From sequence record SRR20825006_1097: a DNA stretch of 52,958 bases. The stretch is one strand, 5' to 3'. The position numbers and the translations under genes were made by a program. The notes beneath the pieces are model-generated. The model was not told the origin of the DNA and made no database searches. It saw nothing but the letters and a program-made list of their open reading frames with translations. Numbering within the stretch: position 1 is the first letter of the stretch; each line of letters begins with the position of its first letter. This document shows positions 1-42,166 of the stretch, one piece after another.

Positions 1-41
1 TAATCCGCGTGTCGGGGGTTCAAGTCCCTCTCCCGCTACCA
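1..41 (+). tRNA. 3' half of tRNA gene, probably elongator tRNA-Met (anticodon truncated by window edge)
   Basis: Last anticodon base T, then AA, TCCGC stem, GTGTC variable loop, T-arm GGGGG-TTCAAGT-CCCTC, acceptor strand TCCCGCT, discriminator A and encoded CCA (39-41). Met identity is from recalled resemblance to alphaproteobacterial tRNA-Met; only one anticodon base is visible. Confidence 0.9.
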
Positions 42-88
42 AAATTTTCCTTATGTTTCAGGTTATTAGGTGTGAGAAGATCTTCGCG

Positions 89-93
89 TTTTT
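89..93. repeat. 5-bp target-site duplication TTTTT, left copy
   Basis: Immediately precedes terminal TG at 94; identical copy follows terminal CA at 42161. Confidence 0.85.
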
Positions 94-142
94 TGTGGCG
101 AGGCGCTACCTTTGGGAAACTTTTGCGTTAGCTTTGGGAAAC
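94..142 (+). repeat. Prophage end (Mu R-end equivalent) with two putative transposase-binding sites
   Basis: CTTTGGGAAAC at 110-120 and 132-142 (22-bp period). Confidence 0.85.
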
Positions 143-237: not shown

Positions 238-702
238 TTAGTTTTTTTGGAAAAAAGTCGATAGCAATTCCGGCAGCATCTTTACCCAGTCAGCAGCAAA
301 CACCCCAACCAAAAAAATAAACAGCCCGACGCCTAAACTTATGAGTGCCGCTATCACTCTTTCTCGGACTTGTCTTTTCCCCAAACTGGATTCAACTTGC
401 AAAAGTAGAGCAGATGCATCTTGCTCAGAGATTGTGGCAAGTTCTGAATAGCGTTCAATGTCTCCTTTGAGTTTCGTAAGTTTATCTGCGCGCTCCGTCA
501 CCGTTGCTTCTAGATTGGCGATTAGCTCATTTGATTTTTGGAGAGCCGCAACGACTTCCGATATTTGCTTGTCTAGCTCTTTGTCCGAACCAGAAATTCC
601 TGCAAGCACACGCGCAAAGTCGATATAAGGACCAACGGTGATAGATAGTAAAGTTCTAGAAAGTGCGTCTGCAAGTCGAGTAACGGATGTTTTATCAGTC
701 AT
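238..702 (-). CDS. Hypothetical coiled-coil protein with C-terminal transmembrane helix
   Basis: 154 aa; heptad-like middle; hydrophobic VIAALISLGVGLFIFLVGVFAA; overlaps the end of the upstream gene by 8 nt. Confidence 0.75.
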   Translation of the reverse strand: MTDKTSVTRLADALSRTLLSITVGPYIDFARVLAGISGSDKELDKQISEVVAALQKSNELIANLEATVTERADKLTKLKGDIERYSELATISEQDASALLLQVESSLGKRQVRERVIAALISLGVGLFIFLVGVFAADWVKMLPELLSTFFQKN

Positions 703-1951
703 TTTGTTTCTCCGGACGTTGCATAAATAGTCCCCAAAAACTGCCTTGTCTTTTTAGTTTGATCGTATCTGTGGAGTGGATGGTTGTCGCCTTTCGACGT
801 TCATTGCCCGCGTCTGTCAACACTTCCAAGTCCGGGTGTTCAAATGCGGCGGCATCGATATCTTCTTTGTGCGCAGGTGTTAAATTGTAGATGTTTTCAT
901 AGAAGTCATGGACAACTAAAGTGTCGCCGAACTCTGAGATGAGCTTTGGAATATCTTCGAGTAACTGTTGCTTTGAGGATGCACGGCCCGATACATCGAA
1001 AAGATACGGTGCGCCATCTTCTCTGGGATCATATGACAACATGTTTAGGCCAGACCTGCCGAAGTGTGCCTGCAAAGTAGCATTGTCGTGTAGAGTTATA
1101 TTGTATTCTTGTCTTGCACGATATGAGTTGGCGAAGTGTATCAACCAATAACGCCAACCGCTGGGATTGTTGATAGAAAATGGGCTCACGTAAGGTGCGC
1201 ACCGATAAAAATTTTCGAAAACAAGACGTTCCGCTTTTCCTAGCCACTCATCGTTGTTGCGGCCACCCGCCAATTTTGACATTTCAGTTTTTTCAATGTC
1301 GAGTTTATGCAGGCGTTTCGCGAGGCCGTCTGGATTGCTTTTGTTCAGATATGCGAGCAGAGAACTGATCATGAATGTGTAGAAAATCTCGACTGACTTT
1401 CCAAGGCGCATAATGTCGATCAAAGTCGACATTTTGACATGGGAGTCGCCACATTGATCTAGATTGAATAGACAATTGCCGTAGCCGCCAGATTTTAGTT
1501 TTTCTTTTATTCTTGGATAGGCGGTTTCAAAAAAATCTGACGTGTATTCGACTTGAATTTGAAGGTTTTGGCATTCTTCTTTGGCGGCCAGAAGTATAGG
1601 AGTACAGTTTCCTCTTAACAAATGAACAACATCTTCATCTGCATCGTTCAATAGCAAGAGACACTGTACCTCAATTGTACGCATTCCCTGCTGTGCTCGT
1701 AAGAGGTTAATTGCATTTACGGTCCGCGAAAGACTCTCAATAAAGATAATGGGTGAACCGGGTTCTCCGCCCTTATAACGACCGCCTCCGGCGAAGCCAT
1801 CAACAATTGCAAGTCGAAACCGCTCTTGCCTTGGACTTTGGCAGCGAATGGAGAGATACTTTTGGAAGTATTCAGCCAGAATTTTGTGTTTTCGTTTTGA
1901 GTGTTCGTCTAAGATCTTGCCATCACGCCATGGGAATTCTTTTTTGGGCAC
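695..1951 (-). CDS. tcmP: Three-Cys-motif partner protein TcmP-like (methyltransferase fold)
   Basis: HSKRKHKIL..Y N-terminus, SAM-binding-like IVDGFAGGG motif, directly downstream of a DUF5131 gene (its usual partner). Confidence 0.85.
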   Translation of the reverse strand: MPKKEFPWRDGKILDEHSKRKHKILAEYFQKYLSIRCQSPRQERFRLAIVDGFAGGGRYKGGEPGSPIIFIESLSRTVNAINLLRAQQGMRTIEVQCLLLLNDADEDVVHLLRGNCTPILLAAKEECQNLQIQVEYTSDFFETAYPRIKEKLKSGGYGNCLFNLDQCGDSHVKMSTLIDIMRLGKSVEIFYTFMISSLLAYLNKSNPDGLAKRLHKLDIEKTEMSKLAGGRNNDEWLGKAERLVFENFYRCAPYVSPFSINNPSGWRYWLIHFANSYRARQEYNITLHDNATLQAHFGRSGLNMLSYDPREDGAPYLFDVSGRASSKQQLLEDIPKLISEFGDTLVVHDFYENIYNLTPAHKEDIDAAAFEHPDLEVLTDAGNERRKATTIHSTDTIKLKRQGSFWGLFMQRPEKQND

Positions 1952-2854: not shown

Positions 2855-3655
2855 CTACCTTGATTTGTTCGAAACCAACAACTCACCGACATCTTTGCCC
2901 CCTTGAGTGCCGCTAGTGTAGCGCGTGCGAACGGGCTGGAGCTCGAAGTTGGAAAAGATGCTGCGGACCTGTGGCACATCATTGATCGACAGGATAAAGC
3001 GTCCTTTGATGCTGTTGAGCTGATCGGCCATTTGCTCAAAATCGCTTTTTGAAAATATCCCCTTTCCATAGTCGTTCTCACAATCCCAATAGGGCGGATC
3101 GAGATAAAATAGGGTGTCTTTGCGATCATAGCGCTCAATGCACTTGGCGTAGGGCAGGCACTCAATCGTCACGCTTGATAACCGGTCATGCACATCTTCT
3201 AATTGGGCTTCTATTCTCGAAAGATTGAACCTGCTGGTATCAAGTTTGACGCCAAATGTTTGTTTGATTGATTTGCCGCCAAAGGCAGTTTTTTGAAGAT
3301 AGATAAAGCGTGCAGCACGTTCCAAATCGGTGAGGGTTGTTGGATCGGTTGCTTTCAAACGCTCAAATTCCGACCGGCTTGAGAGTTGATATTTCAGTGT
3401 GTCCAGGAATTGCGGGTAGTGACGTTGGAGGATGCGAAACAGGTTGGCGATGTCTTTGGAAATATCATTGATTACTTCGCATTTAACGCGCTCGGTGCGG
3501 CGAAAGAAAATGCCGCCCATGCCGACAAATGGCTCGACATAATTTTGATGTGGGGTGCTTTCAATGATCGGCACAATAGTCTTTGCCAAAAGGCGTTTAC
3601 CGCCTTGATAGGGTGCAACCGGATTGACAGCAACAGATTGGATTTGTTTGTTCAT
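2855..3655 (-). CDS. dam: DNA adenine methyltransferase (Dam/D12 class)
   Basis: PYQGGK, YVEPFVGMGG, YLDPPY motifs; occupies the mom-equivalent position. Alternative GTG start at 3685. Confidence 0.92.
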   Translation of the reverse strand: MNKQIQSVAVNPVAPYQGGKRLLAKTIVPIIESTPHQNYVEPFVGMGGIFFRRTERVKCEVINDISKDIANLFRILQRHYPQFLDTLKYQLSSRSEFERLKATDPTTLTDLERAARFIYLQKTAFGGKSIKQTFGVKLDTSRFNLSRIEAQLEDVHDRLSSVTIECLPYAKCIERYDRKDTLFYLDPPYWDCENDYGKGIFSKSDFEQMADQLNSIKGRFILSINDVPQVRSIFSNFELQPVRTRYTSGTQGGKDVGELLVSNKSR

Positions 3656-3702
3656 TTTTTGTGAATGTCTTTCGGCCAAAGTCACCCTCGCTTGTGCAAG
3701 CA

Positions 3703-15123: not shown

Positions 15124-16425
15124 TTAGGCGGCCAAACCCAAGGCGTTTTTAGCCATTTCAATATTGATGTGGTCTTCAACCGTTAGGCGTTCATTCAAGC
15201 CCACCGGTTGCCATTCCATTTTGTAAAAGAAATGATTGTCCGCCACAGACTGCGCCGTGGTTTGGGTGCGGTCAAAAACAAACCGGAAATCATAAAGAAC
15301 CGGGTCATTGCCCGCTGCTTTGCTCAATCCCCATGAATTGATGGTGTCTTCAATCCGCTCAAGGGTAGCTGGATTGGCGTTGCGGTCTTTTTCTTCATCT
15401 AAAAAATGCAGCACCGCTTCTTGCAGCATGTCTTGAATTAAAAGCACATGCAGATTGTTTTGAAGCTTGGTGGAAGTGGGATAGGCCGCATTGCGGTTGC
15501 CTGATGTGTGTGGACCTTTGCCATGACGTTCTTCACAGGTCACAATGCCCTGGCCGCGCAAAATTTGCACATCAGAACTTGCATCACCGGGAATATAAAG
15601 AACATCTTGCGCGGCATCTTCAATGCCAGCAATGCGCCGGTTGGATGGTGAATGGTGATAGCCATATTCCATCACAGAGCTCAGCCACACGCCGAGTAGG
15701 TGCGCCGAATAAGGCTCGCTGATCACTTCACCTGCATTGGGCGAGGTTTCGTCCAGATTGACCACTTGCATATGTGGCCAACACAACACCGCGCGGGGAT
15801 CATTGGTTTGAAAATCAAAGTCGCCGCCTGGTCCGCGTGCTTCGACCACTTGTTGCACGGTCACACCATAAGGCGCGTCCAGAAAATAGCGCGCCTTGGT
15901 GCGTGCGGCGATGGCATCAAGTTCAGCTTTCACGCCATTCAGTTGATCAAAGCCAGTGGCGCATAAAAATTTGGCAAACCAGCCAAATGCCTGATAGCAG
16001 CCATAGGCGTGTTTCAACCCGCTCGCATTGCCGTTGGCATCAAAGCTGCCGATAATATCAAGAGCGGTCACCAAACTTGGATCGGGATTGTCCGCAACAT
16101 CTTTGTGCACCGCCGGATCAAACACATTGATCACGCAAATTGTGCCGATGCCTTTGCGCCCCGCTTTCTTAAACATGGCTTCCAATGCTTGCGGGATCGT
16201 ATAGCCATCGCGATGTGGCCCGAAATATTTGGCAATGTCTGACTGGCGGCGAACAATGACTTTTTTGTTGATGTAGTTGGCGCGCTTTTCAGCGGTGTCG
16301 TGTACCTCGTGGACCGGGGCGGTGCCGATCAACAAACAGGTGGCGGCTTTTCGGTCGCGCACAAGCACGCCACCATCGTTGCGCTCAACAATTTCGGGAC
16401 CGAAAAAGGGCTCGGTTGCGCTCAT
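15124..16425 (-). CDS. Tail sheath protein
   Basis: LIGTAP, YTIPQALEAMF, SPSNRRIAG, GNRNAAYP motifs. Confidence 0.92.
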   Translation of the reverse strand: MSATEPFFGPEIVERNDGGVLVRDRKAATCLLIGTAPVHEVHDTAEKRANYINKKVIVRRQSDIAKYFGPHRDGYTIPQALEAMFKKAGRKGIGTICVINVFDPAVHKDVADNPDPSLVTALDIIGSFDANGNASGLKHAYGCYQAFGWFAKFLCATGFDQLNGVKAELDAIAARTKARYFLDAPYGVTVQQVVEARGPGGDFDFQTNDPRAVLCWPHMQVVNLDETSPNAGEVISEPYSAHLLGVWLSSVMEYGYHHSPSNRRIAGIEDAAQDVLYIPGDASSDVQILRGQGIVTCEERHGKGPHTSGNRNAAYPTSTKLQNNLHVLLIQDMLQEAVLHFLDEEKDRNANPATLERIEDTINSWGLSKAAGNDPVLYDFRFVFDRTQTTAQSVADNHFFYKMEWQPVGLNERLTVEDHINIEMAKNALGLAA

Positions 16426-30731: not shown

Positions 30732-31043
30732 TTAGGTTTGGCGAGGTGTGGGCCGACGTGCGACCGGCAGCATGACCACATTTCCAGTGAGTTCTTGCGC
30801 TTGAAGGGTCACGCAATTGGGCGCAATGGCGCGCTCATATTGCTTGGCCTGATCACGACAGTTTTCGATATTGATGAGCAACTTGGTGGCGTCATTTGCA
30901 GAAAGACGACCATCGCTATTCACGCGATCAGCTACAAAATAGATCAAGGCAGTCAGTTCATTGCTCAGCATTGGCCAATCCTTTTTGAGATGCATGAGCG
31001 CAGCTTTTGCAGCTATGCCAATGGCGCAATGCGTGTGGGTCAC
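30732..31043 (-). CDS. Hypothetical early protein
   Basis: Fits the operon; C-terminal GNVVML. Confidence 0.6.
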   Translation of the reverse strand: MTHTHCAIGIAAKAALMHLKKDWPMLSNELTALIYFVADRVNSDGRLSANDATKLLINIENCRDQAKQYERAIAPNCVTLQAQELTGNVVMLPVARRPTPRQT

Positions 31044-31305
31044 TCAATGGTTGTGGACGATTGGCAAAACCGTCGCATTGGCTGACGCTGATTGCTGTTT
31101 GCAAATATGGGCAGAACCGACCATCGGTTAAGGCATCAATGATCTTTTGGGCGATGCGATCCGTGTTGGCCGTATATTTATGGCTCAACAAAAGCGACAC
31201 TGATGGGCGTGAAATCCCGATTTCATCAGCCACCTTTTGAATGGAGCCAATCTCGTTCACGCGGTCACGCAAAAGGGTGAGATAGATGGGTTCTTTTACC
31301 GGCAT
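30958..31305 (-). CDS. Small HTH protein with Cys cluster
   Basis: IQKVADEIGISRPSVSLLL HTH; CPYL...C...CKSC. Confidence 0.75.
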   Translation of the reverse strand: MPVKEPIYLTLLRDRVNEIGSIQKVADEIGISRPSVSLLLSHKYTANTDRIAQKIIDALTDGRFCPYLQTAISVSQCDGFANRPQPLSDPHALRHWHSCKSCAHASQKGLANAEQ

Positions 31306-31892
31306 GGCACTTCACCCCCTTTGCCTTCATTGATGTTGCGATCAAAAAGGCTGTTGCGGTGGCGGCGCACCACTGGCGCTTGTGGGCCAGTATTTTTGAT
31401 CAGCTTAAATCGCTTAAAACCATTTGAGGTGAGGTGGGTGCCCTTTTGGCGCACACGCATCTCGATCAAATATCCAGCCTGGCAAAGGGCGCGGATATAG
31501 CGCTGCAAATTGTTCTCAGGGGTTTGATCGTCGTCACCGGCGGCTGCCATGGTGAGTTGCTGCACCGTAAAGCTTTCGCCCATCCGCATAATGCGCCAGG
31601 CGCGCTGGCGAAGGGTTTGCCGATAGGATTTGCGAAGCTTGGTGCGGTCTTTGCTGATCGGTCCGCTTTTGATTTCCAAGCCTGATTGTGCCGCCTTTAA
31701 TCCCGTCTCGGTGAGTTGGTAGCAACCGGTTTCAATGCGTTCGGCATAGTCACGCAAAATCAATTGTCGGGCGCCATCGGATATTTGCCGCCGGTTAAAT
31801 TGGGTTTCCTGATCCAATTGATCAATCGTTTTGCATGAGCCATCAGCAAGATGGTGCATGATTTTGGTGGGGATTTCGCCAGGTGCCAACAT
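31296..31892 (-). CDS. Tandem winged-helix protein downstream of MuB
   Basis: GCYQLTETG and LRQRAWRIMR....FTVQQL...YIRALCQAGYL...NTGPQAP. Confidence 0.8.
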   Translation of the reverse strand: MLAPGEIPTKIMHHLADGSCKTIDQLDQETQFNRRQISDGARQLILRDYAERIETGCYQLTETGLKAAQSGLEIKSGPISKDRTKLRKSYRQTLRQRAWRIMRMGESFTVQQLTMAAAGDDDQTPENNLQRYIRALCQAGYLIEMRVRQKGTHLTSNGFKRFKLIKNTGPQAPVVRRHRNSLFDRNINEGKGGEVPCR

Positions 31893-32206
31893 TATGCCAC
31901 CTCATGCTTTAAATCGTCAGAAACCCGCAATTGCTCGGCATAAATCCAACGGTGTGAAAGCTGGTTGGCTTCAAGCCAAACGGCCAAGCGAACGCGCGCT
32001 TCTTCACGATTGTCTTGCAGATAAACGCCAGGCACAAAAAACTGGTTTGTTGCAGGGTCATGTCCGGCATAGCCAGCAACCCGCGTTTTAATGTCGATGA
32101 GTGTGCCGCGTTGCTCAAAGATGATGGTGTGTGCGGGCAGTTGATCAACCTCTTCACAAAAGCCGATTTCGCCCGTGCGATAACAATATGCAAAAGCCAT
32201 GATCAC
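31892..32206 (-). CDS. Hypothetical early protein
   Basis: AYCYRTGEIGF...VPGV; overlaps both neighbours. Confidence 0.7.
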   Translation of the reverse strand: MIMAFAYCYRTGEIGFCEEVDQLPAHTIIFEQRGTLIDIKTRVAGYAGHDPATNQFFVPGVYLQDNREEARVRLAVWLEANQLSHRWIYAEQLRVSDDLKHEVA

Positions 32207-32970
32207 ACCTCATTAGGAACGCGGATGGTCTTTGAGGTACGGCGATCATCAATAATGGGCTGGCCCGCCATATCGCTTAGCGAGACACCGCCTTCTTCAG
32301 GCGGATTGCGCAAGCCAAATTTTTCAACCCGCGTGATCGCTTCAATCAGTTCGCGGTTGAAGCCTTGGGTGACCTTATGGACAAATTCCAACAAATTATC
32401 GGCAACCGGTACTTCGCATAGGCTTGAAAACATCAATCGCACATCATCAAGGCTTGCTTGCTCAAACTTCACGCGCTGCGACACGCGTGATGAGACTTGC
32501 GGGAAGCGCTTTAGATTGTCATTGATCCGACCCATGCCCACCAAAATGGTTGGAATTTCTAACATGTCCGAAAGATCGCGGATGGTTTCCAAAATGGCTG
32601 ACTTTGAAGAGATGTGATCCGCCTCATCAAACACCAAGCCAAAGGTGCGTTTTTCATTCAGCGCCAGCATATGGCGGTCGGTAAGCTCTTCTAATGCTTT
32701 GGCATATCGTTTTTGAAAAGCATGGGGTACCGGCACTTGCAGCGCTTCAAGCAGTTCGCTCATCATCCAAGATGGCGTCCATTCCTTTTTAGCGCGCAAA
32801 TAAACACAGTCATTTTGGGCCACCCAATTGCGCAAGGTTGTGGTTTTGCCCAGGCCAGGCAGCCCGTCAATCACAATCAGGCACGCTTCAGCTGCCCCAC
32901 GTTCTTCAACAGCGGTTAGCGCTTTTGCAAAGCGTTGCACATTTGAGGTTTTGACAAATCGGTTTTTCAT
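32203..32970 (-). CDS. MuB-like AAA+ transposition ATPase
   Basis: GLPGLGKT, LVFDEAD, IRDLSD, ILVGM; follows the transposase. Confidence 0.93.
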   Translation of the reverse strand: MKNRFVKTSNVQRFAKALTAVEERGAAEACLIVIDGLPGLGKTTTLRNWVAQNDCVYLRAKKEWTPSWMMSELLEALQVPVPHAFQKRYAKALEELTDRHMLALNEKRTFGLVFDEADHISSKSAILETIRDLSDMLEIPTILVGMGRINDNLKRFPQVSSRVSQRVKFEQASLDDVRLMFSSLCEVPVADNLLEFVHKVTQGFNRELIEAITRVEKFGLRNPPEEGGVSLSDMAGQPIIDDRRTSKTIRVPNEV

Positions 32971-33032
32971 AAGTAGCCTTTCATGGCGCACGGAGAAGGT
33001 GGTAGCTTTCCGTGTTGCGTTTTCTATTTGTG

Positions 33033-35156
33033 TCAGGCAGCGGCGCGCACGATTTCTCTTATTCGGTTCACGTCAATGCCTGACATTTCCAAAAGTTCGA
33101 GCTTCGCCTGAGACAACAGGCAGTTACGCAATACTTCAATTTGGCTACTGGCCAGACCATTGGGGTGCTCGAGTGCCCAAATGGCCAAATCTTCATCAGA
33201 CGCAAAGCGAAGCGGGCGCACATTGTCAGCGCGTAAACCTTCTTTGCGGTCGATATTCTCGGATGATTGTTCAATGGTGATGGACGCGTTCGCCGATGGC
33301 GTTAGCGGTTCCATTGGTTGAATGTTTGAGGCTTCGATAAACGGCATTGGATTGCGTTCCGCCTCGATCTCATCATATTTCATATCAAGGCGACGCTTGC
33401 GTGCCTTTGCCCGCTTTTCATCAGCGACTTTGGCATAGCTCTCATTCACATAGTCTTGTGTGTGGCCGTCGCGCTCAGCAATGCAAATCAGCTTGCCTGG
33501 ACGTTCTTGACCATCGATCTCTTCGATCTCACGTATCCACAATTTTGAACCATCATGGATGTCAAAACCGGCGATCACTTTCTTGTTGTGATAAGTATCT
33601 AAATCCAATGAGAAATATTCACTATTGATAAAGCGCACGATGCAGCGGCTAACGGTGCGCACCACATAGGAGCGGAATAAATCATCACCTTCATTGCTAA
33701 CCAAAGTTACTGGCTGAAACCCTTGGTCCACATGTCGTGCCCAAGCCTCATTTGGCGAACATCTTAGCTTGCGGTGAATGCGGGCATTATATTCATCAAT
33801 GGCCCGTTTGCAGTCGGCCATAAACTCATCCCAACTCTTCAAAAGCTTGCTTTCACCAAATTCTTTGAGGTCTTTTCGGGTGCGTTTATGCACAAAATTG
33901 CTGGCCTCTTTATCCATTTCACGGCCGAGATAAGTGGCATATTCGCGGGCTAAAGGGTTCCAAACGGTGCCGTTAAAGCGCTCAATTACGCCCCGTGCTT
34001 GGGAGTTGCGGGGCAATGAATGGTGAGAGGTTATGCCCAATCGTTCCAAAACGCCGGTCATTTGGTCTTTTAAGCGTTTGTTTTTATAGCCAGGGCCACG
34101 GTCGGTATAGAAAATGGCGGGAATGCCATGCGTTTCGATGGAGTTGCGTAAGGCGTCAATCACCCCATCAGCATTTTCAACCAGGCCAATAGAAAACCCA
34201 ACGCATTTGCGGGTGGCCACATCAACAACAGATGTGATTTCAGGCTTGAAGGGTGAGCCGGTAATTGGGTGAGCAACTTCCGCATCAAATGTCTTGCCAT
34301 CGGCGGTGTAGATGGTGGTGGGCAACATTCCATCAATTGAGCGAGATACGTAAGCCATCCGCGCTTTAAGGGTGAGCGGACGTTCGCGGCCTTTATGTTT
34401 GGAAATGTCATCCATTTGGCGCAGCAACCGCACCACTTGGGCATAGGTGGGGACGAAATCAGAACCCTTGTTTTTCAATTCGCGCTGAAACTCACGCAAC
34501 GCTTCTGAAATGCAAGGTTTTTGCGGGCGCGCATAATGATGCAGAAACCCACCAAACCAATCTGGAAAAGATTGCTTCTTTTTGGTTTTGAGTGGTGCAA
34601 GCGCGGCCACGCCAAAATCATCACGCTGATTGTACCAGCGATAAATGCTGCTTCTGCTTAGTTTGGCGGATTTGTTGGTGCGGTCATTGGCGGTGATGGC
34701 TGTTTGCTCATCAATGCCAAACTCAGCAGGCATGATAAGAAAGCACTTAATCGCCTGAAAGCGAGATAATTCCTCATGCAATTGATAGGCGTCAATGGCG
34801 CTGAGAATAGCGGCGCGGGCATCCATAACTTGCCGTTGGCGGGCGGACAGTTCGGTCGTCACCAAAGCTGCCCGCCGCCTAGCCTCGCGCTCACGAGAAA
34901 CTTGTTGGTCTTGTTTAATGATCTGCTTGTTGTGCTCTGCCAGCGCAACGTCTTGCAGCATCTCAGGCAAAAGCGAAATATGATATTCTAGGCCACCGCC
35001 GCGCACTTTGCGCCTGCGACAAAGATCACCATGTGCTGCCCATTCTTCGCGCTTGGCAAAATCTTGTATCCGGCGTTTGCTGCTTGGGAAATGTTTGAAT
35101 CCTGTGCGCTTCACCAAATCGGCAATGTCTTGTGCAGAAAACCAGTTTTGCATCAT
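33033..35156 (-). CDS. MuA-like DDE transposase
   Basis: N-terminal Mu HTH (WFSAQDIA..GGGLEYH), DDE triad YTADG / YTDRGPGY / GVIERFN. Confidence 0.95.
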   Translation of the reverse strand: MMQNWFSAQDIADLVKRTGFKHFPSSKRRIQDFAKREEWAAHGDLCRRRKVRGGGLEYHISLLPEMLQDVALAEHNKQIIKQDQQVSREREARRRAALVTTELSARQRQVMDARAAILSAIDAYQLHEELSRFQAIKCFLIMPAEFGIDEQTAITANDRTNKSAKLSRSSIYRWYNQRDDFGVAALAPLKTKKKQSFPDWFGGFLHHYARPQKPCISEALREFQRELKNKGSDFVPTYAQVVRLLRQMDDISKHKGRERPLTLKARMAYVSRSIDGMLPTTIYTADGKTFDAEVAHPITGSPFKPEITSVVDVATRKCVGFSIGLVENADGVIDALRNSIETHGIPAIFYTDRGPGYKNKRLKDQMTGVLERLGITSHHSLPRNSQARGVIERFNGTVWNPLAREYATYLGREMDKEASNFVHKRTRKDLKEFGESKLLKSWDEFMADCKRAIDEYNARIHRKLRCSPNEAWARHVDQGFQPVTLVSNEGDDLFRSYVVRTVSRCIVRFINSEYFSLDLDTYHNKKVIAGFDIHDGSKLWIREIEEIDGQERPGKLICIAERDGHTQDYVNESYAKVADEKRAKARKRRLDMKYDEIEAERNPMPFIEASNIQPMEPLTPSANASITIEQSSENIDRKEGLRADNVRPLRFASDEDLAIWALEHPNGLASSQIEVLRNCLLSQAKLELLEMSGIDVNRIREIVRAAA

Positions 35157-35617
35157 TTGCCTCCCCATTTGGCGCTTAAGGCGCGGCGTTCCATTTCCAG
35201 CTGGCTGGCGGCTTGATCAAGCTGCCAAAGGCGCAACACATCCGCATATTTTGCAGGCACCACCACGCATCCGGTGAAGCCGCACACAAAACCCAAAAGC
35301 TCCATGCATTTGGTTACTTCCAAAAGCGCGATAAAGCGCTCCAACGTGATCTTGTGGTCGGTGCGCGCGGGGCTGGCGTAAGAGTTGAGCATGTTGGTGG
35401 TGATCTTTTGATCGAGATAGTCTGACATGGCCAAAGCAACGGCATCGCGATTAAGGCCATGCTGTTCCTGGGCATGGGTCATGGCAGCGGCGAGGGCGCG
35501 GGCAATTTTCACATCCAATGTGCCGCCCTTGGTCACCTGCTCATCAAATTGATGGGCAATCGGTTCCGGTGTTAAATCCCGAAATAAATCCAACGTGTTT
35601 TTGTCTCGCCGCACCAT
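35153..35617 (-). CDS. Phage early protein (putative DNA-binding)
   Basis: RDAVALAMSDYL...MLNSYASPARTDHKI; ATGA overlap with the transposase start. Confidence 0.75.
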   Translation of the reverse strand: MVRRDKNTLDLFRDLTPEPIAHQFDEQVTKGGTLDVKIARALAAAMTHAQEQHGLNRDAVALAMSDYLDQKITTNMLNSYASPARTDHKITLERFIALLEVTKCMELLGFVCGFTGCVVVPAKYADVLRLWQLDQAASQLEMERRALSAKWGGK

Positions 35618-35621
35618 GGTT

Positions 35622-36446
35622 TTAAATCCGTCCGGTGCGTTTTGCCCAAGCCATGATTTTCACCTCATGGACTGCAAAAACATTCTCGAGCTCTTCATCC
35701 TTAAGGCCGCGCAGCGCCTTGTTGATGGAGGCATATTTCTTTTCAAAGTGAGAGGGCAGGCGGCCCGCTTCCAAAAGCAACATTGCGTCGGCAACATTGG
35801 TGGCTTTTGGCGGTGTGCTGAACAGCACTTCGCAAATCTTTTTCTGCATTGCAGGCTTTTGTGCCGCAAGTTGTTGTAAACCCGCTTGATGGTCCGCCAG
35901 CCAAGTGCCTTGGATTGTCGCTTTTGAAGCTTCCGATAGCCCTTTCCAAATGGCCACTGCATTGAAGAAAGACCGACGAGATAAGCCAATCTGATCTAGG
36001 ATTTCAGACCGAAGTGCAAAAATTGCACTTCGGTCTTCGATGGTCAGGGAGGTTTGCTTGTCACCGCCTTTTTCAAGTTCGGGGTGCAGCGCTTTATATG
36101 CTTGGTCCAGTTCGAACAGATGCTGAGCACGGTCCAGGGCGTTCAGCTCATTACGCCCAATATTTTCAATCACCTCTTCAAGCCGCGCTTCATGCTCATT
36201 GCTGGCTTGAGATAGCCGCGCCGGAATATGATCACGTTCCAAGGTGATGAAGGCCGCAAGGCGGTGATGGCCAGAAACCAAGCGATAGGCGTTGCCATCC
36301 GCAATTACACTAATCGGATTGATCAGGCCGCTTTGCTCAATCATCCCGGCAAGCGCTTCCACCCAATGTTCATTGAGTTCGCGGGCGCGGTTCTCGGGTA
36401 TGGTAATCTGTTTGATCGCAATATCTTGAATGGCTTGTTTAGGCAT
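35622..36446 (-). CDS. ParB N-terminal domain protein
   Basis: GLINPISV, LVSGHHRLAA, ENIGRNEL, then HTH IGLSRRSF. Confidence 0.88.
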   Translation of the reverse strand: MPKQAIQDIAIKQITIPENRARELNEHWVEALAGMIEQSGLINPISVIADGNAYRLVSGHHRLAAFITLERDHIPARLSQASNEHEARLEEVIENIGRNELNALDRAQHLFELDQAYKALHPELEKGGDKQTSLTIEDRSAIFALRSEILDQIGLSRRSFFNAVAIWKGLSEASKATIQGTWLADHQAGLQQLAAQKPAMQKKICEVLFSTPPKATNVADAMLLLEAGRLPSHFEKKYASINKALRGLKDEELENVFAVHEVKIMAWAKRTGRI

Positions 36447-36509: not shown

Positions 36510-36818
36510 CTATGCGGCCTCTTTCCTGCCAATTGCTCCATTGCGTTTTTGGCTGGTATATCGGCGGCGGCGTCTGATAGGATTATTCCGTTGGCGCAAA
36601 AGGCGACCGGTTTCGGTGTAACGATTGGGCCAAAGTTCGTGTAAGGTGACACCGAGCCATTGGGCGATCTTGCGATCCGCTTTTGGAAAACGGCGACACA
36701 GAGCAACTGCAACATCAGTTGGAGCAAGGGAGAGTTCTTCAGACAAAGATTTTAACGTGTACCCACGGCGGTTAATCTCCGCCTTAATTGAGTGCTTGTC
36801 CCAGCGTTCGCGGGTCAT
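36510..36818 (-). CDS. ner: Ner-like transcriptional regulator
   Basis: WDKHSIKAEINRRG.TL..LS...ADRKIAQWLGVTLHELWPNRY. Confidence 0.9.
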   Translation of the reverse strand: MTRERWDKHSIKAEINRRGYTLKSLSEELSLAPTDVAVALCRRFPKADRKIAQWLGVTLHELWPNRYTETGRLLRQRNNPIRRRRRYTSQKRNGAIGRKEAA

Positions 36819-36883
36819 CGTGCTCACTTTCCAAACCGGTTGCAGCCGGTTTTTTTGAAAACAAATCGTTCGTAACTGAGAAC

Positions 36884-36939
36884 ACAATAAAGAAGAATAC
36901 TGCGTAAAGTCAATATACTTTAAGCAGGTTTCTGCGTTA
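36884..36939. promoter_or_regulatory. Divergent c/ner control region with early promoter and two operator-like repeats
   Basis: Minus-strand TTGACT (36913-08) followed 18 nt later by TATTGT; repeats AAGAAGAATACTGCGTAA (36890-907) and AAGCAGGTTTCTGCGTTA (36922-39). Confidence 0.6.
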
Positions 36940-36943
36940 AATA

Positions 36944-37435
36944 ATGGCTAAACCAAAGAACCCGACTACGCCTTTTGCCGCTCGCCTCGTCGAAGTTATT
37001 GATACTATTGATGAAAGTGTTGACCTGCCGAGTTCATTGGGGGTCAGTCTGCGGAGCATTTCCGATTACCAGAGCGGAAAAGTGCAACCCAGGACTGAGT
37101 TTTTAGAACGCCTCAACGGCCTTACTGGGGTCAGTCTTGGTTGGTTGCTAACAGGTGAGGGACTCATGTTCGATGAGACACCACCAAAGCTGCCCGATGG
37201 TGCGCCAATCAACGTCGACATGCAGTCGAAATACATCAAGCCAATCGTGCTGCACCTAGCCCGCGTGCAAAAACAAAAACAAATCCACCTGGAGCCTGAC
37301 CTGATCTGGTGGATTATCTCGTCCATCCACAATGCACTCCTAGAAGAACACCACGGCGCTGATGTCGACAGCGACGAATTCAATGAGCTTCTTACCGAGC
37401 TAATTGATAAGCAGCTGGAAAAAGGTGGATGGTGA
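36944..37435 (+). CDS. Prophage repressor (XRE HTH)
   Basis: LGVSLRSISDYQSGKVQP...GVSLGWLLTGEG; divergent from ner. Confidence 0.88.
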   Translation: MAKPKNPTTPFAARLVEVIDTIDESVDLPSSLGVSLRSISDYQSGKVQPRTEFLERLNGLTGVSLGWLLTGEGLMFDETPPKLPDGAPINVDMQSKYIKPIVLHLARVQKQKQIHLEPDLIWWIISSIHNALLEEHHGADVDSDEFNELLTELIDKQLEKGGW

Positions 37436-37502: not shown

Positions 37503-39209
37503 ATGATGCGCTCAAAAGTTCTCGATGCAATTATCCCTCTTTCAAGAGTTCCTGATGAAAAGCGGCCTGAGTGGTTGGAAAATGCTGAGGATAGCGTTGC
37601 ATTTTTGCAAAAAAATCTGAAATCAGATGAAATCCTGCTCTATGCGAGCGGTCCTCATTTTTATGTGCACTCGGTACTAGCCCCCACAGATTTGCTAAAA
37701 AAACCTGATCACAATGATTTGCAATCGGGCAATGTTATGCTCGACAATTGTTGGCGCATCCAAAAGGTCTATGGCGGTGGTCAGGGGCACCGTGTTTTTT
37801 TAGAGCCGCCAATGATAGATTCCGGAAGTAACATTCTCAAAGGTGGTGAAAAGCTTGTCTTTGTTCGACAGTTTATGGGCATGAAAGATTTCAATCCGCC
37901 AGTTGAGTTAAGCCAAAAGTTGGTACATGCTCTCGATGTGCATTATTTGGACGAGCGGAATGCGTATTGTCGTTTGGACGACAAGGGTGATCTTGTAGAT
38001 GTTATCGTTGTTTCGCAAAATGATACACACGATCCATGGCAACGTGTACGTGCTGTCACAATAAAAGGCACTGATCTAGCCACCTATATGGCTCTAAGCA
38101 GATTAAGTCTGGTATCATACTTCGATTTTACCCGCACTGCACCTGGCGGTTTTTCAGGCTGGGGTAATGGTGGTGAGCAGGTTTTCCAAGCTTCTGATTT
38201 TTACTATCGACACCGAAAACTCGAAAAGCACGCAAGTTATGCAAATGGGCATGCCGTGTTGCGCACCAAGCTTAGTGTTGACGACCTTGTTGACGACTGG
38301 AAAGCATCCGAGGATAAGTCAGCGAAAAAATATGCTTCATTCAAGATTATCGATAGAAAAAATGACAACGCTTTGATCGAGACGTCTTGTAGTCCCGATC
38401 ATATCGTGAACTATTTCACCGAGTCGGATTTGCCTTGGGAATTATCACCGGCGTTCTTTCGATCTGAGGTATTGCAGAAATATAAGTCCGATACCGAAAA
38501 ATACACTTTTGAAGATCGAAGCATCAGCTGTCGCAATTCATGGTACTTAAAGACCTATGACATCAATGAAGCAGGGCAAGTGCACACCTATATCGGATAC
38601 CTGGCTGATCTCCCATATGAAGAACAACTCTATTGGCAATCGTTCAACGAATGGCCTGAGGCGGATATTTCCGAACGCGCGCGACAAACTGATATTCGTG
38701 GTGAGTTTTCCACCGTCAGCGATCCCTTACATTCTTTAAAAGCTTTGATCCAGAAGTTAGACCGAGAGAACCCATCTTGGTGGTCGACACGCGGAGACTT
38801 TTTGTTAGATGCAGCGAATAATCCAGTAACCGATTCAGTTGACGAATGGGGTAACGAAATTCTCGCACTTGATCATTTGGCTGTCGAGGGCTTTTCAGTC
38901 AAAGAGCTTAAGAAAATTGTGAAACAAAATGGTGGTGAAGTTGAGAAAGAATGGGGGTCGCTGAAGTCGCTAGAGGTTGCTTTGTCACTAACTGGACGAA
39001 CTGAGGAGCAAGCCAAAGCTGCAGTATCACCGTTGAGAGAACTTCATTTGCTCCGCAATCCCTTAAGAGCTCACGGAAACCCTTCGAAGCGTAGGGAGGA
39101 AACTGCGAAAGCCCGTAAGCAGTTTAGTACGTTGAGAAGTCACTACATTGATCTGGTGTCGCGGTTGGAGGTTTCTTACGATACGATCATTGCTACACTT
39201 CCAAAGTAG
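37503..39209 (+). CDS. Cargo protein with putative C-terminal HEPN domain
   Basis: 568 aa; helical C-terminus with LRNPLRAH (R-x5-H). Confidence 0.75.
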   Translation: MMRSKVLDAIIPLSRVPDEKRPEWLENAEDSVAFLQKNLKSDEILLYASGPHFYVHSVLAPTDLLKKPDHNDLQSGNVMLDNCWRIQKVYGGGQGHRVFLEPPMIDSGSNILKGGEKLVFVRQFMGMKDFNPPVELSQKLVHALDVHYLDERNAYCRLDDKGDLVDVIVVSQNDTHDPWQRVRAVTIKGTDLATYMALSRLSLVSYFDFTRTAPGGFSGWGNGGEQVFQASDFYYRHRKLEKHASYANGHAVLRTKLSVDDLVDDWKASEDKSAKKYASFKIIDRKNDNALIETSCSPDHIVNYFTESDLPWELSPAFFRSEVLQKYKSDTEKYTFEDRSISCRNSWYLKTYDINEAGQVHTYIGYLADLPYEEQLYWQSFNEWPEADISERARQTDIRGEFSTVSDPLHSLKALIQKLDRENPSWWSTRGDFLLDAANNPVTDSVDEWGNEILALDHLAVEGFSVKELKKIVKQNGGEVEKEWGSLKSLEVALSLTGRTEEQAKAAVSPLRELHLLRNPLRAHGNPSKRREETAKARKQFSTLRSHYIDLVSRLEVSYDTIIATLPK

Positions 39210-39240
39210 TTTTTGCTCTGATCATGGGGGCGGTGTTTTT

Positions 39241-40176
39241 TTATTCCAATGCTGCCGTCGTTTCTGATGGTTTACGCTGTCGAAAAGCTCGCGCAAATTC
39301 CGCATCACTGATGGTGCCAGTGCCATAATCAGGAAAATCAATTGCGACAAAACCTATTCCGCGGCGATGTCTAAAAGTGAATAAATGCCCCACACAATCA
39401 GAGTTAGGGAGTAAGAAACGCCTCACGAAGGGTTTGCTTTCCCAGTCCTTTTTTACAAAAGTATTTCCTGGAGTATCTTTTATTATCCAAGGTTGTTTTC
39501 CGAACGTGCCGAATTGCTTTTCAACAATTTGAGAAATCAATCTCACCGCAGTAAGGGCATCGTCTTTCACAGTTTCATAAGTTTCTCGATTGAAGTGAAT
39601 AGCCCGGTGACGTTCATATCCAAGCGATAGAAAATCGTCCGCAACTGTATCGAAAAAGATGTCCCATCCGCGCAAAACTGCGACACAGAATTCCCAATTG
39701 TCAAAAGAGTTTTTCGTTAAAACCCTTTTTTGAACTTTCGAGTTCTCGTAATGATTTAGCTCGCTAAAATCAGTTCGAAGTTCCAAAATTAGATGGTTCA
39801 AAATTCTCTCGCCTAAAGCGCAAGCACTTGTTAGGGCGGCATAATAGGCGCCAGAAACGTAAGCTGTTCTGGCGTGGTTTAAGAATGAGTTGTGGTTAGC
39901 AACCACCGAAAAAGGAAGCGCGCCAACAAGTTTAAACCGATCAATTTTATCCTGACCGTCACTAGCGCCAAATTCTAACAATAAATTGTCTTCCAGACGT
40001 TTGCAGTTTTTCAGGTGGGCTTTTCTTTGCTCTTCACTCCATTCCTCACCGATTTTTTGGTTTAGAATATTTGCGCGGAAATCAAAATTACTAGGCCGAG
40101 TAACCCACCTTCGCCGACCATAGTCGGGTTGGGCTTTTGTTTCCTCGATTGTTGTCGGCATGCGCTTCACGGCCAT
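39241..40176 (-). CDS. Cargo protein, putative HEPN domain
   Basis: ARTAYVSGAYYAALTSACALGERIL (HEPN-like first helices) and RHRAIH (R-x4-H). Confidence 0.78.
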   Translation of the reverse strand: MAVKRMPTTIEETKAQPDYGRRRWVTRPSNFDFRANILNQKIGEEWSEEQRKAHLKNCKRLEDNLLLEFGASDGQDKIDRFKLVGALPFSVVANHNSFLNHARTAYVSGAYYAALTSACALGERILNHLILELRTDFSELNHYENSKVQKRVLTKNSFDNWEFCVAVLRGWDIFFDTVADDFLSLGYERHRAIHFNRETYETVKDDALTAVRLISQIVEKQFGTFGKQPWIIKDTPGNTFVKKDWESKPFVRRFLLPNSDCVGHLFTFRHRRGIGFVAIDFPDYGTGTISDAEFARAFRQRKPSETTAALE

Positions 40177-40247
40177 CTTTCTTCAAACCTTAGTCTTAGT
40201 TTGAGATTTTATTGCAGAGTCTTCTATTTGGCCATTGAGAACATTTG

Positions 40248-40263
40248 GTTAACAAGATATTAA
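40248..40263 (-). promoter_or_regulatory. Perfect CtrA-box match TTAA-N7-TTAAC
   Basis: Minus strand TTAA TATCTTG TTAAC. Confidence 0.5.
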
Positions 40264-40344
40264 GGGCGGAACAGACGGCGGCAACCGTCTGCAAACGAGT
40301 GCGTCATCACTCGCTTATGTGAACAATATACTCCACACCCGCCC
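40264..40344 (+). ncRNA. Putative cloverleaf-like regulatory RNA
   Basis: GGGCGG/CCGCCC closing stem enclosing CAGACGG/CCGTCTG, CGAGTG/CACTCG and TGTG/CACA hairpins. Confidence 0.55.
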
Positions 40345-40378
40345 CTTCCCACCGGCGGGAACCATTAGTGATGACGTT

Positions 40379-40483
40379 ATGATTTTAAGCGATAAAAAGC
40401 GCAATGAATTGGCGCGGAAATTTCAGCTGCAGTTTTCCTATGTTACAAAAAAAGAAAACAGGACGGCTTCTGTTCGCAAATAG
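40379..40483 (+). CDS. Possible 34-aa basic peptide downstream of the cloverleaf
   Basis: MILSDKKRNELARKFQLQFSYVTKKENRTASVRK*; its initiation region is complementary to the cloverleaf loop. Confidence 0.35.
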   Translation: MILSDKKRNELARKFQLQFSYVTKKENRTASVRK

Positions 40484-40700
40484 AGAGAGTTTGTACAATT
40501 GAATTGCGGTAAGTTTTTTTCTTATCGTTCATTCCAAATTTGGCGTTTGTAATGTCCCTCTGAATTGCTTTTGCACAACACGCTGACTATTAATGTGAAT
40601 GTCGAGGTCAAATATAATCAACCTAACCGATACTTCAGATTCTAGACAATTGTATCGCTGGATCGAATCTCATAAAGTTTAGAATTATTATTAGTTATTT

Positions 40701-41225
40701 GTGAGATTTATCTTGGAACTGATAGCGAGCATTGGGACGTTTTTCTCACAAGTAGAAGACTTCTTTTCGCCTTACGCTGCGACTATCACGGTCGCCGGAA
40801 CCGTTTTTACAATAATTAGTGCAGTAGTTGCTTTCTTCCATGCCAGAAGCGCAATTAACGCAAGAGACGAAGTCAGAGATGCAATCGCTCGCGTTACACT
40901 TGCGGTAGTTTCAGAACGATTACGACTTGCACAGGAGCATATTAGAAATATAGCACCGGGAAAGTCCTCAGCACGCGGGTTTAACCCACATTCGGCACTA
41001 GGAGAGATAAGAAAAGAATTCGACACTGCATTAGGAGAATTGCCTATTGATGGAATTGCTAACGAGGCTCGGCAAAAGCTCCGTAATGCACAGACTAAAC
41101 TCAATGAGTATGAAGCTTCTATGAGGACACAGCCGGACTCGGAAAAGTGGGCGGAACTACAAAATCTAGTTCAAGATGCTGTTTCCATTTTAAAGAAAAC
41201 TGCGATTAGTGATGGAGTCTCCTAA
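40701..41225 (+). CDS. Hypothetical protein with N-terminal TM helix
   Basis: AATITVAGTVFTIISAVVAFF then helical domain; TAATG coupling to the next gene. Confidence 0.75.
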   Translation: MRFILELIASIGTFFSQVEDFFSPYAATITVAGTVFTIISAVVAFFHARSAINARDEVRDAIARVTLAVVSERLRLAQEHIRNIAPGKSSARGFNPHSALGEIRKEFDTALGELPIDGIANEARQKLRNAQTKLNEYEASMRTQPDSEKWAELQNLVQDAVSILKKTAISDGVS

Positions 41226-41620
41226 TGGATGAAAAGGCAATAATTGAAAGAATTGAGGAGCTTCGTTCCTTGGTTCAAAAACTTGAGTTCCAAGTTTCGA
41301 CCCTTGGTGAGGCGATCGACTATGAAAACTTCCCCATGCAGTCTCTAATTTTGTCAATGGACTGGAACCGCGATCAACTGGATATAGCCCATTCGATTTT
41401 TGAAACATGGGACAAGAAACTCAATGCAGGTGAGCCTATGAGATACGGCGAGTTTGAAAGTGCATTTGAAGAAAATTTAGGCATTGGATATCAAGGTGTA
41501 AAGTCAGTAATCTTGGCGTTTTATGAAGATCATAGATGGACCAACGTTTGTGAGGCTTACGTCGCAACTGATGCGGGAAGTACTGCGGAACTACAATCGA
41601 TCAGGCGACAGATCTCGTAA
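41225..41620 (+). CDS. Hypothetical protein, resembles YhaI/DUF1878
   Basis: LEFQVSTL...ID...FP...LIL pattern recalled from YhaI-like proteins; GGAG RBS. Confidence 0.7.
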   Translation: MDEKAIIERIEELRSLVQKLEFQVSTLGEAIDYENFPMQSLILSMDWNRDQLDIAHSIFETWDKKLNAGEPMRYGEFESAFEENLGIGYQGVKSVILAFYEDHRWTNVCEAYVATDAGSTAELQSIRRQIS

Positions 41621-42010
41621 TTATCAATTTTTGCTCCATCCTCTGAAAATGTCGCAAGACTGCTAGCGGACTAATTTATTTATTCGCATAATACGCTTGT
41701 ATGGAATTAATTTAGCTCGCGATCTCAGCGTCCCACTTTTCTTAAGGGTTTTTGGGGGTGGTAGCTCAACGATACCTTGAAAAATATACCTTATTTCTAT
41801 TCTGAGGCGCTTTCCGAACCTCGGGACAATGCGTCTCATTTTGCGCTGACACTCTAAAGGCGTTGGTCAGCGCGCAACCACCACGTCATAGAATGTGGTT
41901 GGTGGTCGAAGTTTGGTAATAGTTGCACGAACTATGAAGTGCAGGGCATTGTGTATTAATTCGTTCTTGCCAAACGCCTTGGCAGAACAATTGGCGGACA
42001 ACGCGCGAAT

Positions 42011-42161
42011 TTTCCCAAAGAATGTACAAAAATGGATTAGTTTTGATTGCCTATTTCCCAAAGCGATCAATCTGCGGGAAGGGCTAATAGGGCTGGAGCT
42101 CTTAGGGTTGCGCGCATGTAAGGGGAAAATTTGACTTTCTCAAAGATCACATCCCCCCACA
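42011..42161 (-). repeat. Prophage end (Mu L-end equivalent) with three putative transposase-binding sites
   Basis: TTTCTCAAAG 42136-45, TTTCCCAAAG 42054-63 and 42011-20; terminal CCACA. Confidence 0.85.
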
Positions 42162-42166
42162 TTTTT
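42162..42166. repeat. 5-bp target-site duplication TTTTT, right copy
   Basis: Matches 89-93. Confidence 0.85.

Follow-up and report, generated by a model that had tools for sequence, protein, structure and literature searches.

Is a transposable phage that lies just downstream of a transfer RNA (tRNA) gene there by chance, or was it steered to that place? The question is raised by sequence record SRR20825006_1097, a stretch of 52,958 nucleotides (nt) analysed at its full length and called here the window, in which a Mu-like transposable prophage of 42,068 base pairs (bp; positions 94-42161, minus strand, early genes at the high-coordinate end) follows a tRNA-Met sequence. A first-pass annotation of this DNA had suggested that this phage group may home to tRNA sites, and had conceded that one insertion cannot separate targeting from chance. 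We agree with the latter point, and a survey of relatives argues against chance and supports the former, as 19 of 28 right ends lie shortly downstream of a tRNA or tRNA 3' fragment and the same tRNA-Met was entered a second time independently. We consider it quite likely that this prophage lineage (the relatives of RcapMu and RR1-B) settles mostly ~40-340 nt downstream of stand-alone tRNA genes, through a regional target preference exerted during integrative transposition.

At the near junction, the tRNA-Met piece (1-41, plus strand) ends in ...CCCGCTACCA at position 41, and a spacer of 47 nt (42-88) separates this CCA end from TTTTT at 89-93, after which the phage end, TGTGGCGAGG, starts at 94. 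The far phage end, ...CCCCCCACA, closes at 42161 and is followed by a second TTTTT (42162-42166) and then by GCGCG, so that the prophage has TG..CA ends and the same 5-bp target-site duplication on both sides. Its termini are imperfect inverted ends with repeated subterminal sites of the TTTGGGAAA type, located ~17 nt inward at both ends. Within the right (S-side) end (94-142), two exact TTTGGGAAAC repeats (111-120 and 133-142) are likely transposase-binding sites, and the left (c-side) end (42010-42161; inward, TGTGGGGGGATG...) has, on the minus strand, two repeats resembling TTTGGGAAA (42010-42019 and 42053-42062). Because of the TG..CA ends and the 5-bp duplication, the prophage is seen to have entered by DDE transposition. 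No tyrosine or serine recombinase was found in the 49 prophage open reading frames, scanned against Pfam, PHROGs or PADLOC, nor was a tRNA-derived direct repeat found at the far junction, because the far flank continues the tRNA-Met trailer, which is uninterrupted in Maritalea porphyrae. What the first-pass annotation had read from the letters at this locus (a CCA end at 41, a duplication starting at 89, no tRNA copy at the far end, and no integrase) is therefore confirmed.

ARAGORN reports no tRNA anywhere in the window, the gene being incomplete at its 5' side, where the window start cuts it. A search of 400 nt with the Rfam tRNA model, however, aligned model positions 35-71 with window 1-38 (18.7 bits, E 0.26) and marked the match as truncated at the 5' side, and 1-41, which runs from the anticodon loop through the CCA end, agrees in every base with the 3' part of the intact tRNA-Met(CAT) of M. 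porphyrae (ARAGORN, locus L083, 1465-1541). The piece is the 3' part of a tRNA-Met, and could belong to a whole gene or be a 3'-half copy. On the other side of the prophage, a gene for a protein with NERD and SEC-C Pfam domains (42234-44426, minus strand) is convergent with the tRNA, and before insertion the empty site was a gap of ~190 nt between the 3' ends of the two genes. The product of this neighbouring gene has 730 amino acids (aa), and its C-terminal SEC-C tail weakly matches the PADLOC E2/PDC-S12 models. Further along the host side, a peptide ATP-binding cassette (ABC) substrate-binding protein (46289-47848, plus strand) has its best named relatives in the Roseobacter group (82-85%), unlike the tRNA locus and the phage of the same window, which are closest to Maritalea.

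The best relative by transposase (MuA, 67% identity) is in fact found in M. porphyrae, where a prophage colinear with that of the window at 65-75% nucleotide identity occupies C44:50614-90079, with CTTTG on both sides. Its right end faces an intact tRNA-Met, the CCA end of which lies 113 nt before the duplication, and the stretch between tRNA and insertion is homologous both to the window spacer and to the window far flank. The same tRNA-Met, in the same orientation, was thus used at an offset of 113 nt (CTTTG) in one genome and 47 nt (TTTTT) in the other, and because the points of entry and the duplications differ within the same tRNA trailer, the two insertions are independent. M. porphyrae also carries two extra tRNA-Met 3' halves with no intact tRNA (G001:C44:128100-128176 and 139832-139924; L082 and L081), each running from the anticodon loop through ~110 nt of trailer; judged by their sequence, they resemble attachment repeats, those of integrase islands that lie in tandem on the downstream side of the Mu-like prophage. 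The window begins 4 nt inside the segment that is repeated at these two loci, and its start may mark a contig break at the repeat.

For the survey, an alignment of 30 MuA proteins yielded 80 loci in one-genome-per-species contigs, and the right-hand regions of 40 of these were examined. The mapping looked for TG/CA pairs that were bordered by the same 5 bp and had inverted ends matching each other, and it ignored tRNAs, which were called afterwards with ARAGORN on 3-kb flanks. The resulting 28 right ends comprise those of 26 relatives, of M. porphyrae and of the window. In 19 of them a tRNA or a tRNA 3' fragment precedes the phage by 37-339 nt (median 98), and in all 19 the 3' end of the tRNA points toward the phage. 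The tRNAs are tRNA-Met in L021 (45 nt), the window (47 nt), L037 (49 nt), L064 (72 nt), M. porphyrae (L001, 113 nt) and L053 (123 nt); tRNA-Arg in L027 (64 nt), L032 (69 nt), L004 (79 nt), L017 (98 nt) and L035 (222 nt); tRNA-Lys in L070 (107 nt) and L026 (339 nt); tRNA-Phe in L036 (130 nt) and L031 (176 nt); tRNA-Ser in L033 (37 nt); tRNA-Ala in L030 (204 nt); and tRNA-Asp in L075 (206 nt); in L051 a tRNA 3' fragment is found at 59 nt. Two more of the 28 elements have a tRNA at their left end (L052, tRNA-Ser, 143 nt, 3' side; L063, tRNA-Met, 267 nt, 5' side), which brings to 21 those with a tRNA no more than 340 nt from one end, and no tRNA was found beside the other seven (L003, L005, L006, L013, L049, L072 and L074). 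Even with all unresolved loci scored as negative, a right end beside a tRNA remains in 17 of 40 relatives. The test that the first-pass annotation had proposed, which was to locate the ends of relatives by TG..CA and duplication and tabulate distance and orientation to tRNAs, therefore returned both tRNA enrichment and a bias in orientation.

Left flanks tell a similar story on a smaller scale, with a tRNA within 267 nt in 8 of 58, the phage being on the 3' side of the tRNA in L066, L069, L065, L052 and L043 and on the 5' side in L018, L025 and L063. Over all insertions, 24 are on the 3' side of the tRNA versus 3 on the 5' side, and among the downstream insertions of the 28 elements the right end is proximal in 19 and the left end in one. 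The association is also sharply bounded: the first 340 nt of the 84 flanks (27.9 kb) hold 23 tRNAs and the next 191 kb hold none, no tRNA being found at 340-3000 nt from a phage end in any of the 84. The targets include at least nine tRNA identities (Met, Arg, Lys, Ser, Phe, Ala, Asp, Thr and Cys), in hosts that include Rhodobacterales, Hyphomicrobiales, Nitrosospira and Pseudomonas (alpha-, beta- and gammaproteobacteria), and tRNA adjacency is scattered over the MuA tree, beta- and gammaproteobacterial hosts included. A second collection, IMG/VR, provided 27 provirus records, most of them trimmed inside the phage ends, and four right ends with enough flank: one duplicates L027, two are new and lie 87 nt after a tRNA-Phe and 103 nt after a tRNA-Met, and one, also new, has no tRNA in 3.7 kb.

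The ends on which these counts rest are of a recognisable type. Relatives conserve TGT[AG]GGGG at the left terminus (in 57 relatives) and TGT[AG]GCG[CG]G, read inward, at the right one, and 21 whole relative prophages of 33-43 kb have an exact 5-bp duplication. Five right ends have weaker support: in L004 the two copies of the duplication differ at one position, in L021, L074 and L017 they do not match, and L053 has no left end. In L021, L074 and L017 (with L098, L124 and L127), left and right phage ends are clear and the 5-bp flanks differ, which suggests recombination between co-resident copies or some other rearrangement after insertion. L074, a prophage of Oceaniglobus, also contains at 15593-15659 a match to the type II hammerhead ribozyme (63.7 bits, above the gathering score). 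We left out of the counts the Bosea/Chelatococcus loci L040, L041 and L046, where a tRNA-fMet lies ~5 kb before MuA and no left end was mapped, as well as L078, with a probable left end ~102 nt after a tRNA-Met. Many of the relatives' contigs, 38-41 kb long, consist of the phage alone or are broken at the phage ends, an indirect hint of replicative transposition with variable host DNA on packaged genomes.

Other searches added little. Single-protein scans for close MuA relatives in genome, viral and metagenome contigs returned nothing, and neither did a three-protein alignment of the closest MuA sequences against viral contigs; against metagenome contigs, the same alignment found two loci at 66% identity, in one of which the 249 nt of left flank are the end of a protein gene. 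Genome searches at family and at order level found MuA relatives in 1 of 243 and 3 of 401 genomes, respectively. Two groups of matches were discarded. In the genome of L066 (G269), 12 extra MuA-like matches were excluded, as their homology stops ~2.4 kb before the transposase gene; these genes, of ~40% identity (for instance C1:718461-720626, C4:1138887-1141052 and C9:3454606-3456273), belong to a short multi-copy element, present as several near-identical families at whose copies contigs break, and with a left arm that is not that of a Mu-like phage. In Pannonibacter, right-end matches obtained with the right-end DNA of a relative belong to another element beside tRNA-Cys. There, an identical 2.9-kb block occurs twice (L151 and L152; G683:C6 and C5); one copy stops 21 nt inside the 3' end of tRNA-Cys, and the other stops at an isolated tRNA-Cys 3' fragment of 21 nt, a structure typical of an integrase element and unrelated to the Mu-like copies of Pannonibacter.

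Could such a distribution result from insertion at random, as in Escherichia coli Mu, if only lysogens with the phage in a harmless site persist and tRNA 3' flanks are safe places? All the sites examined here are natural and long selected, they are intergenic, and seven of the 28 elements lie elsewhere, open-frame interiors included. Selection might explain the bias in orientation, because transcription continuing from the tRNA into the left end would follow the direction of the early lytic operon and oppose the repressor gene, and it might explain the few promoter-proximal 5' insertions, because hits in tRNA promoters would be harmful by silencing the tRNA; both features may in fact be partly selective. 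The proportions, however, are difficult to reconcile with selection only. With assumed figures, the 340-nt 3' flanks of tRNA genes make up ~0.5% of a genome and ~4% of its intergenic DNA, yet 19 of 28 right ends fall there, with a binomial probability of 2e-37 under a whole-genome null and 4e-20 under an intergenic-only null, both of which assume 60 tRNAs, 4 Mb and 12% intergenic DNA. The sharpness with which tRNAs vanish beyond 340 nt is not what safe-site selection would lead one to expect, the lineage also retains insertions within genes and at other intergenic places, and the same tRNA-Met was entered independently in two genomes. E. coli Mu, which has the same lifestyle, provides a control: its left end was found in 44 of 5,426 complete E. 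coli genomes, and 17 of the 40 left ends listed lie under a host coding-sequence annotation. In the seven Mu right-end flanks inspected, which represent six distinct sites, no tRNA is annotated in the first 600 nt, and truncated genes adjoin four of the seven, so these prophages are scattered and often intragenic, unlike the lineage of the window. Random insertion followed by selection is, in our opinion, an improbable explanation, and the bias more probably arises at insertion.

Insertion might also be directed by a dedicated selector of the Tn7 type, with TnsD or TniQ recognising one conserved tRNA sequence and imposing a fixed offset and orientation. The parallel drawn by the first-pass annotation holds in that the phage shares the DDE plus AAA+ architecture and one preferred orientation. 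The transposase is a MuA-type DDE protein of 711 aa (33033-35168, minus strand; Pfam rve, Mu-transpos_C and HTH_Tnp_Mu_1) that weakly matches the Mu transposase structure 4fcy and is ~42% identical to the transposases of RR1-B and RcapMu. Adjoining it is the gene for a MuB-like AAA+ target-capture ATPase (262 aa; 32203-32991, minus strand; Pfam AAA_22 and TniB, phrog_296). The structures matched by this B protein are MuB (8xvb, E 4.9e-5, MuB residues 72-242) and ShCAST TnsC (7m99, E 9.4e-5), about equally well, and it has no counterpart of the MuB N-terminal domain. With 19 right-end-proximal insertions against one left-end-proximal among the 28 elements, the orientation bias is strong. The rest of the parallel fails: offsets span 37-339 nt, nine tRNA identities serve as targets in place of a single site, no TniQ/TnsD-like selector was found in the 31 prophage open reading frames scanned against Pfam (the other 18 were compared with PHROGs only), and there is no early gene specific to the tRNA-associated phages. 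No family of TnsA-type nucleases turned up in the Pfam scans either, in which no search aimed at TnsA was made. A Tn7-like selector is thus largely refuted, and we regard it as very improbable; because the offset varies and no TniQ/TnsD-like protein was found, targeting would be regional and orientation-biased rather than set by a ruler of the Tn7 kind.

It is also conceivable that the tRNA gene itself is not read, and that the phage favours some DNA property common after tRNA genes, such as AT-rich or horizontally acquired DNA, small palindromes, terminators, or the supercoiling that follows strongly transcribed genes. Several duplications do lie between short inverted repeats, and the guanine-plus-cytosine (GC) content at insertion sites is ~5% below that of flanks more than 1 kb away. 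In the accessible parts of the two reports, the Mu-like phage Ab30 has hotspots 55-61 bp from palindromes resembling repetitive extragenic palindromic (REP) sequences (PMC5977238), and E. coli Mu avoids mature tRNA sequence and enters leaders and trailers (PMC7350765). The GC dip is small, however, which is why we rejected AT-richness as the determinant, and many promoters and islands with similar DNA are left unused. Islands extend over tens of kb, yet the insertions reach no further than 339 nt; and the 24 versus 3 one-sidedness, together with the orientation bias, would need a polar cue or added selection. A ruler based on the tRNA terminator was likewise rejected, as insertions fall on either side of it, and so was a consensus in or around the 5-bp target, none being clear in 23 sites. 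An indirect preference of this sort seems to us unlikely. At L051, where the phage adjoins a bare tRNA 3' fragment, there is a hint that DNA rather than transcription is read, though the fragment may also be the work of an integrase island that came in later than the phage and split the tRNA.

Returning to a preference for tRNA genes as such, several of our results weigh against it. The offset varies ninefold, with insertions before or after the tRNA terminator, and no simple ruler can therefore be at work. No accessory or early gene of the window phage is confined to tRNA-associated relatives (tblastn, 33 relatives), and the Pfam-scanned open reading frames lack a TniQ/TnsD-like candidate for the role. 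Four of the seven elements away from tRNAs belong to one Rhizobium/Agrobacterium subclade; when L051 was still scored as having no tRNA, four of eight such cases fell in that subclade of the MuA tree, a weak clustering matched by 10 of 500 label shuffles. The seven insertions adjoin no tRNA or other Rfam RNA gene, and at least one of them, L013, is inside an open frame of 881 codons. (Rfam did place an RNase P RNA in L096, ~5 kb from the phage end.) We acknowledge, moreover, that no recognisable right end was present in 14 of the 40 right-hand regions, four of which were shortened by contig ends, that IMG/VR added only three new evaluable right ends (two of them tRNA-adjacent) and that provirus trimming may favour tRNAs, that the tRNA counts and genome sizes behind the null probabilities were assumed and not taken from the real host genomes, and that every site surveyed is a natural prophage which has already passed through natural selection. 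In view of the seven exceptions, four of them in one subclade, the tRNA preference is not absolute and may differ between clades.

If the preference is exerted at insertion, one phage component presumably reads the tRNA gene. As a mechanism, we propose that a general feature of tRNA genes, which might be conserved DNA, a structure or complex on the gene, or its transcription and termination zone, would position, bound or nucleate the MuB-like AAA+ target complex beside the gene, and that MuA would then use some acceptable 5-bp site in the vicinity for insertion, usually placing the right (late-gene) end toward the tRNA. A bolder version of the proposal is that a universal tRNA-gene sensor is built into the MuA/MuB (TniB-like) machinery itself, without a TniQ-type selector, lineage-wide in alpha-, beta- and gammaproteobacteria, and that it would act downstream of the gene, in a set orientation, and in lysogenic integration only, replicative transposition being unrestricted. 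This we put forward tentatively, giving it somewhat less than an even chance; the feature read could be the conserved T-arm and acceptor DNA, or a complex or structure on it.

The remaining gene content is that of a transposable phage with a myovirus-type tail module. Upstream of MuA, on the minus strand, lie a gene for a ParB_N-domain protein (35622-36446; Pfam and PHROGs), located between ner and MuA, and a Ner-like early regulator with a HTH_35 Pfam domain (36510-36887). Divergent from this early operon is a CI-type repressor gene (36944-37435, plus strand), identified by its position and a weak Phage_CI_repr match (E 3.6e-4). By tblastn, the ParB_N protein is present in 15 of 25 tRNA-associated and 6 of 8 non-associated relatives, and therefore does not track tRNA association. 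What all relatives have in common is MuA, the B ATPase, GemA, a 115-aa helix-turn-helix protein (30958-31305) and a 198-aa phrog_2030 protein (31296-31892). Further genes encode a Gam-like protein, GemA, Mor, a DUF3164 protein and an endolysin, and morphogenesis is represented by terminase, Mu portal, MuF-like protein, capsid, Gp36/Gp37, sheath, tube, tape measure and baseplate genes. Between the repressor and the left end, four open reading frames of 568, 311, 174 and 131 aa (37503-41620) match no Pfam or PADLOC family and have no tblastn match in 33 related prophages, and would represent lineage-specific cargo. Near the right end, a 418-aa open reading frame (695-1951, minus strand) matches the PADLOC candidate defence family PDC-M30A (E 9e-22) and has a GMT-like wHTH Pfam domain, and a DNA methyltransferase gene is found at 2855-3685; both may be cargo with a part in defence or anti-defence, lying where Mom would be expected.

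Insertion by a Mu-like lineage that is directed at a class of genes and biased in orientation appears to be new, as a full-text literature search, which covered articles and not their supplements, found no published report of Mu-like phages targeting tRNA flanks. Choice of site in elements with a DDE transposase and an AAA+ protein has so far been explained by Tn7-type selectors or guide RNAs. If our reading is true, it would add a third mode, in which a gene class rather than a sequence is recognised, it would explain how transposing phages can become lysogenic without mutating the host, and it would provide a simple rule for locating the prophage borders of such phages. The system is compact (ends, A and B) and suited to studies on how an AAA+ target complex is steered, and because cultivable phages exist (RcapMu and RcWaterboi), the question is directly testable. 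A universal sensor, if true, would in addition be the bacterial counterpart of the targeting of RNA polymerase III (Pol III) genes by eukaryotic retrotransposons, and a second, evolutionarily separate DDE/AAA+ route to safe sites.

Phage Mu is the textbook example of a near-random transposer. Like the window prophage, it has a DDE MuA, an AAA+ MuB-like protein, TG..CA ends, repeated subterminal sites, a 5-bp duplication, a c/ner early switch, GemA, Mor, a Mu-type portal and Gp36/Gp37; unlike it, Mu has a longer B protein with the MuB N-terminal region, and MuA identity is too low for Mu to be among the best phage matches of the window. According to the part of the report available, Mu in E. 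coli spares mature tRNA sequence and enters tRNA leaders and trailers (PMC7350765), a pattern that might be seen, by analogy, as a faint version of the tRNA bias. By MuA, the closest sequenced phages are RcapMu, RcWaterboi and RR1-B (41-43% identity), which belong to the same MuA clade as many tRNA-associated prophages. In the RR1-B-like Rhizobium/Agrobacterium subclade, 4 of 5 mapped prophages are away from tRNAs. These phages have tail types other than that of the window phage, which has a sheath gene; the tail of RcapMu is described, in the accessible portion of the source, as noncontractile (PMC8601537). The accessible portions of the literature on RcapMu and RcWaterboi contain no mention of a target bias that we could find.

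Biased integration by Mu-like phages has been seen elsewhere. In Citromicrobium, as far as the available part of the report goes, phiA occupies a 40-bp zone in 24 of 24 lysogens, new ones included, and phiB uses six hotspots, with replicative transposition being chromosome-wide (PMC12486242). These phages resemble the window lineage, as we view it, in that integrative transposition is biased, in their case experimentally so, and differ from it in that the targets given there are a hypothetical protein gene and unnamed hotspots, and not tRNA flanks (PMC12486242). Ab30 of Pseudomonas, also a Mu-like phage, likewise has its hotspots at a set distance from a structured repeat; unlike the sites of the window lineage, these are, from what the accessible text states, replicative-transposition hotspots at REP-like palindromes and show no orientation bias (PMC5977238). 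Phages and islands with tyrosine integrases also use tRNA loci; in the window, neither an integrase nor a tRNA-derived direct repeat was found, and the junctions are TG..CA with a 5-bp duplication outside the tRNA.

Tn7-like elements combine a DDE transposase with an AAA+ regulator and insert in one orientation downstream of a conserved gene, following a safe-haven logic; they home by means of TnsD/TniQ or a guide RNA, at a fixed offset and one site, and some CRISPR-associated transposons home beside tRNA genes. The window lineage shares with them one preferred orientation to the target gene, although in 5 of 58 left flanks the left end is the one proximal to the gene on its downstream side, and departs from them in its variable offset, its many tRNAs, and the fact that no TniQ was found. 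In outcome, the closest parallel is with the retrotransposons Ty1, Ty3, TRE5 and TRE3 of yeast and Dictyostelium, which insert tens to hundreds of bp from any tRNA gene, with a preferred side and orientation. Their enzymes are unrelated to those of the window lineage and their targeting works through Pol III factors, which bacteria lack, so the likeness is one of analogy only; in both cases, nonetheless, the element comes to rest in a gene-poor safe zone near tRNA genes.

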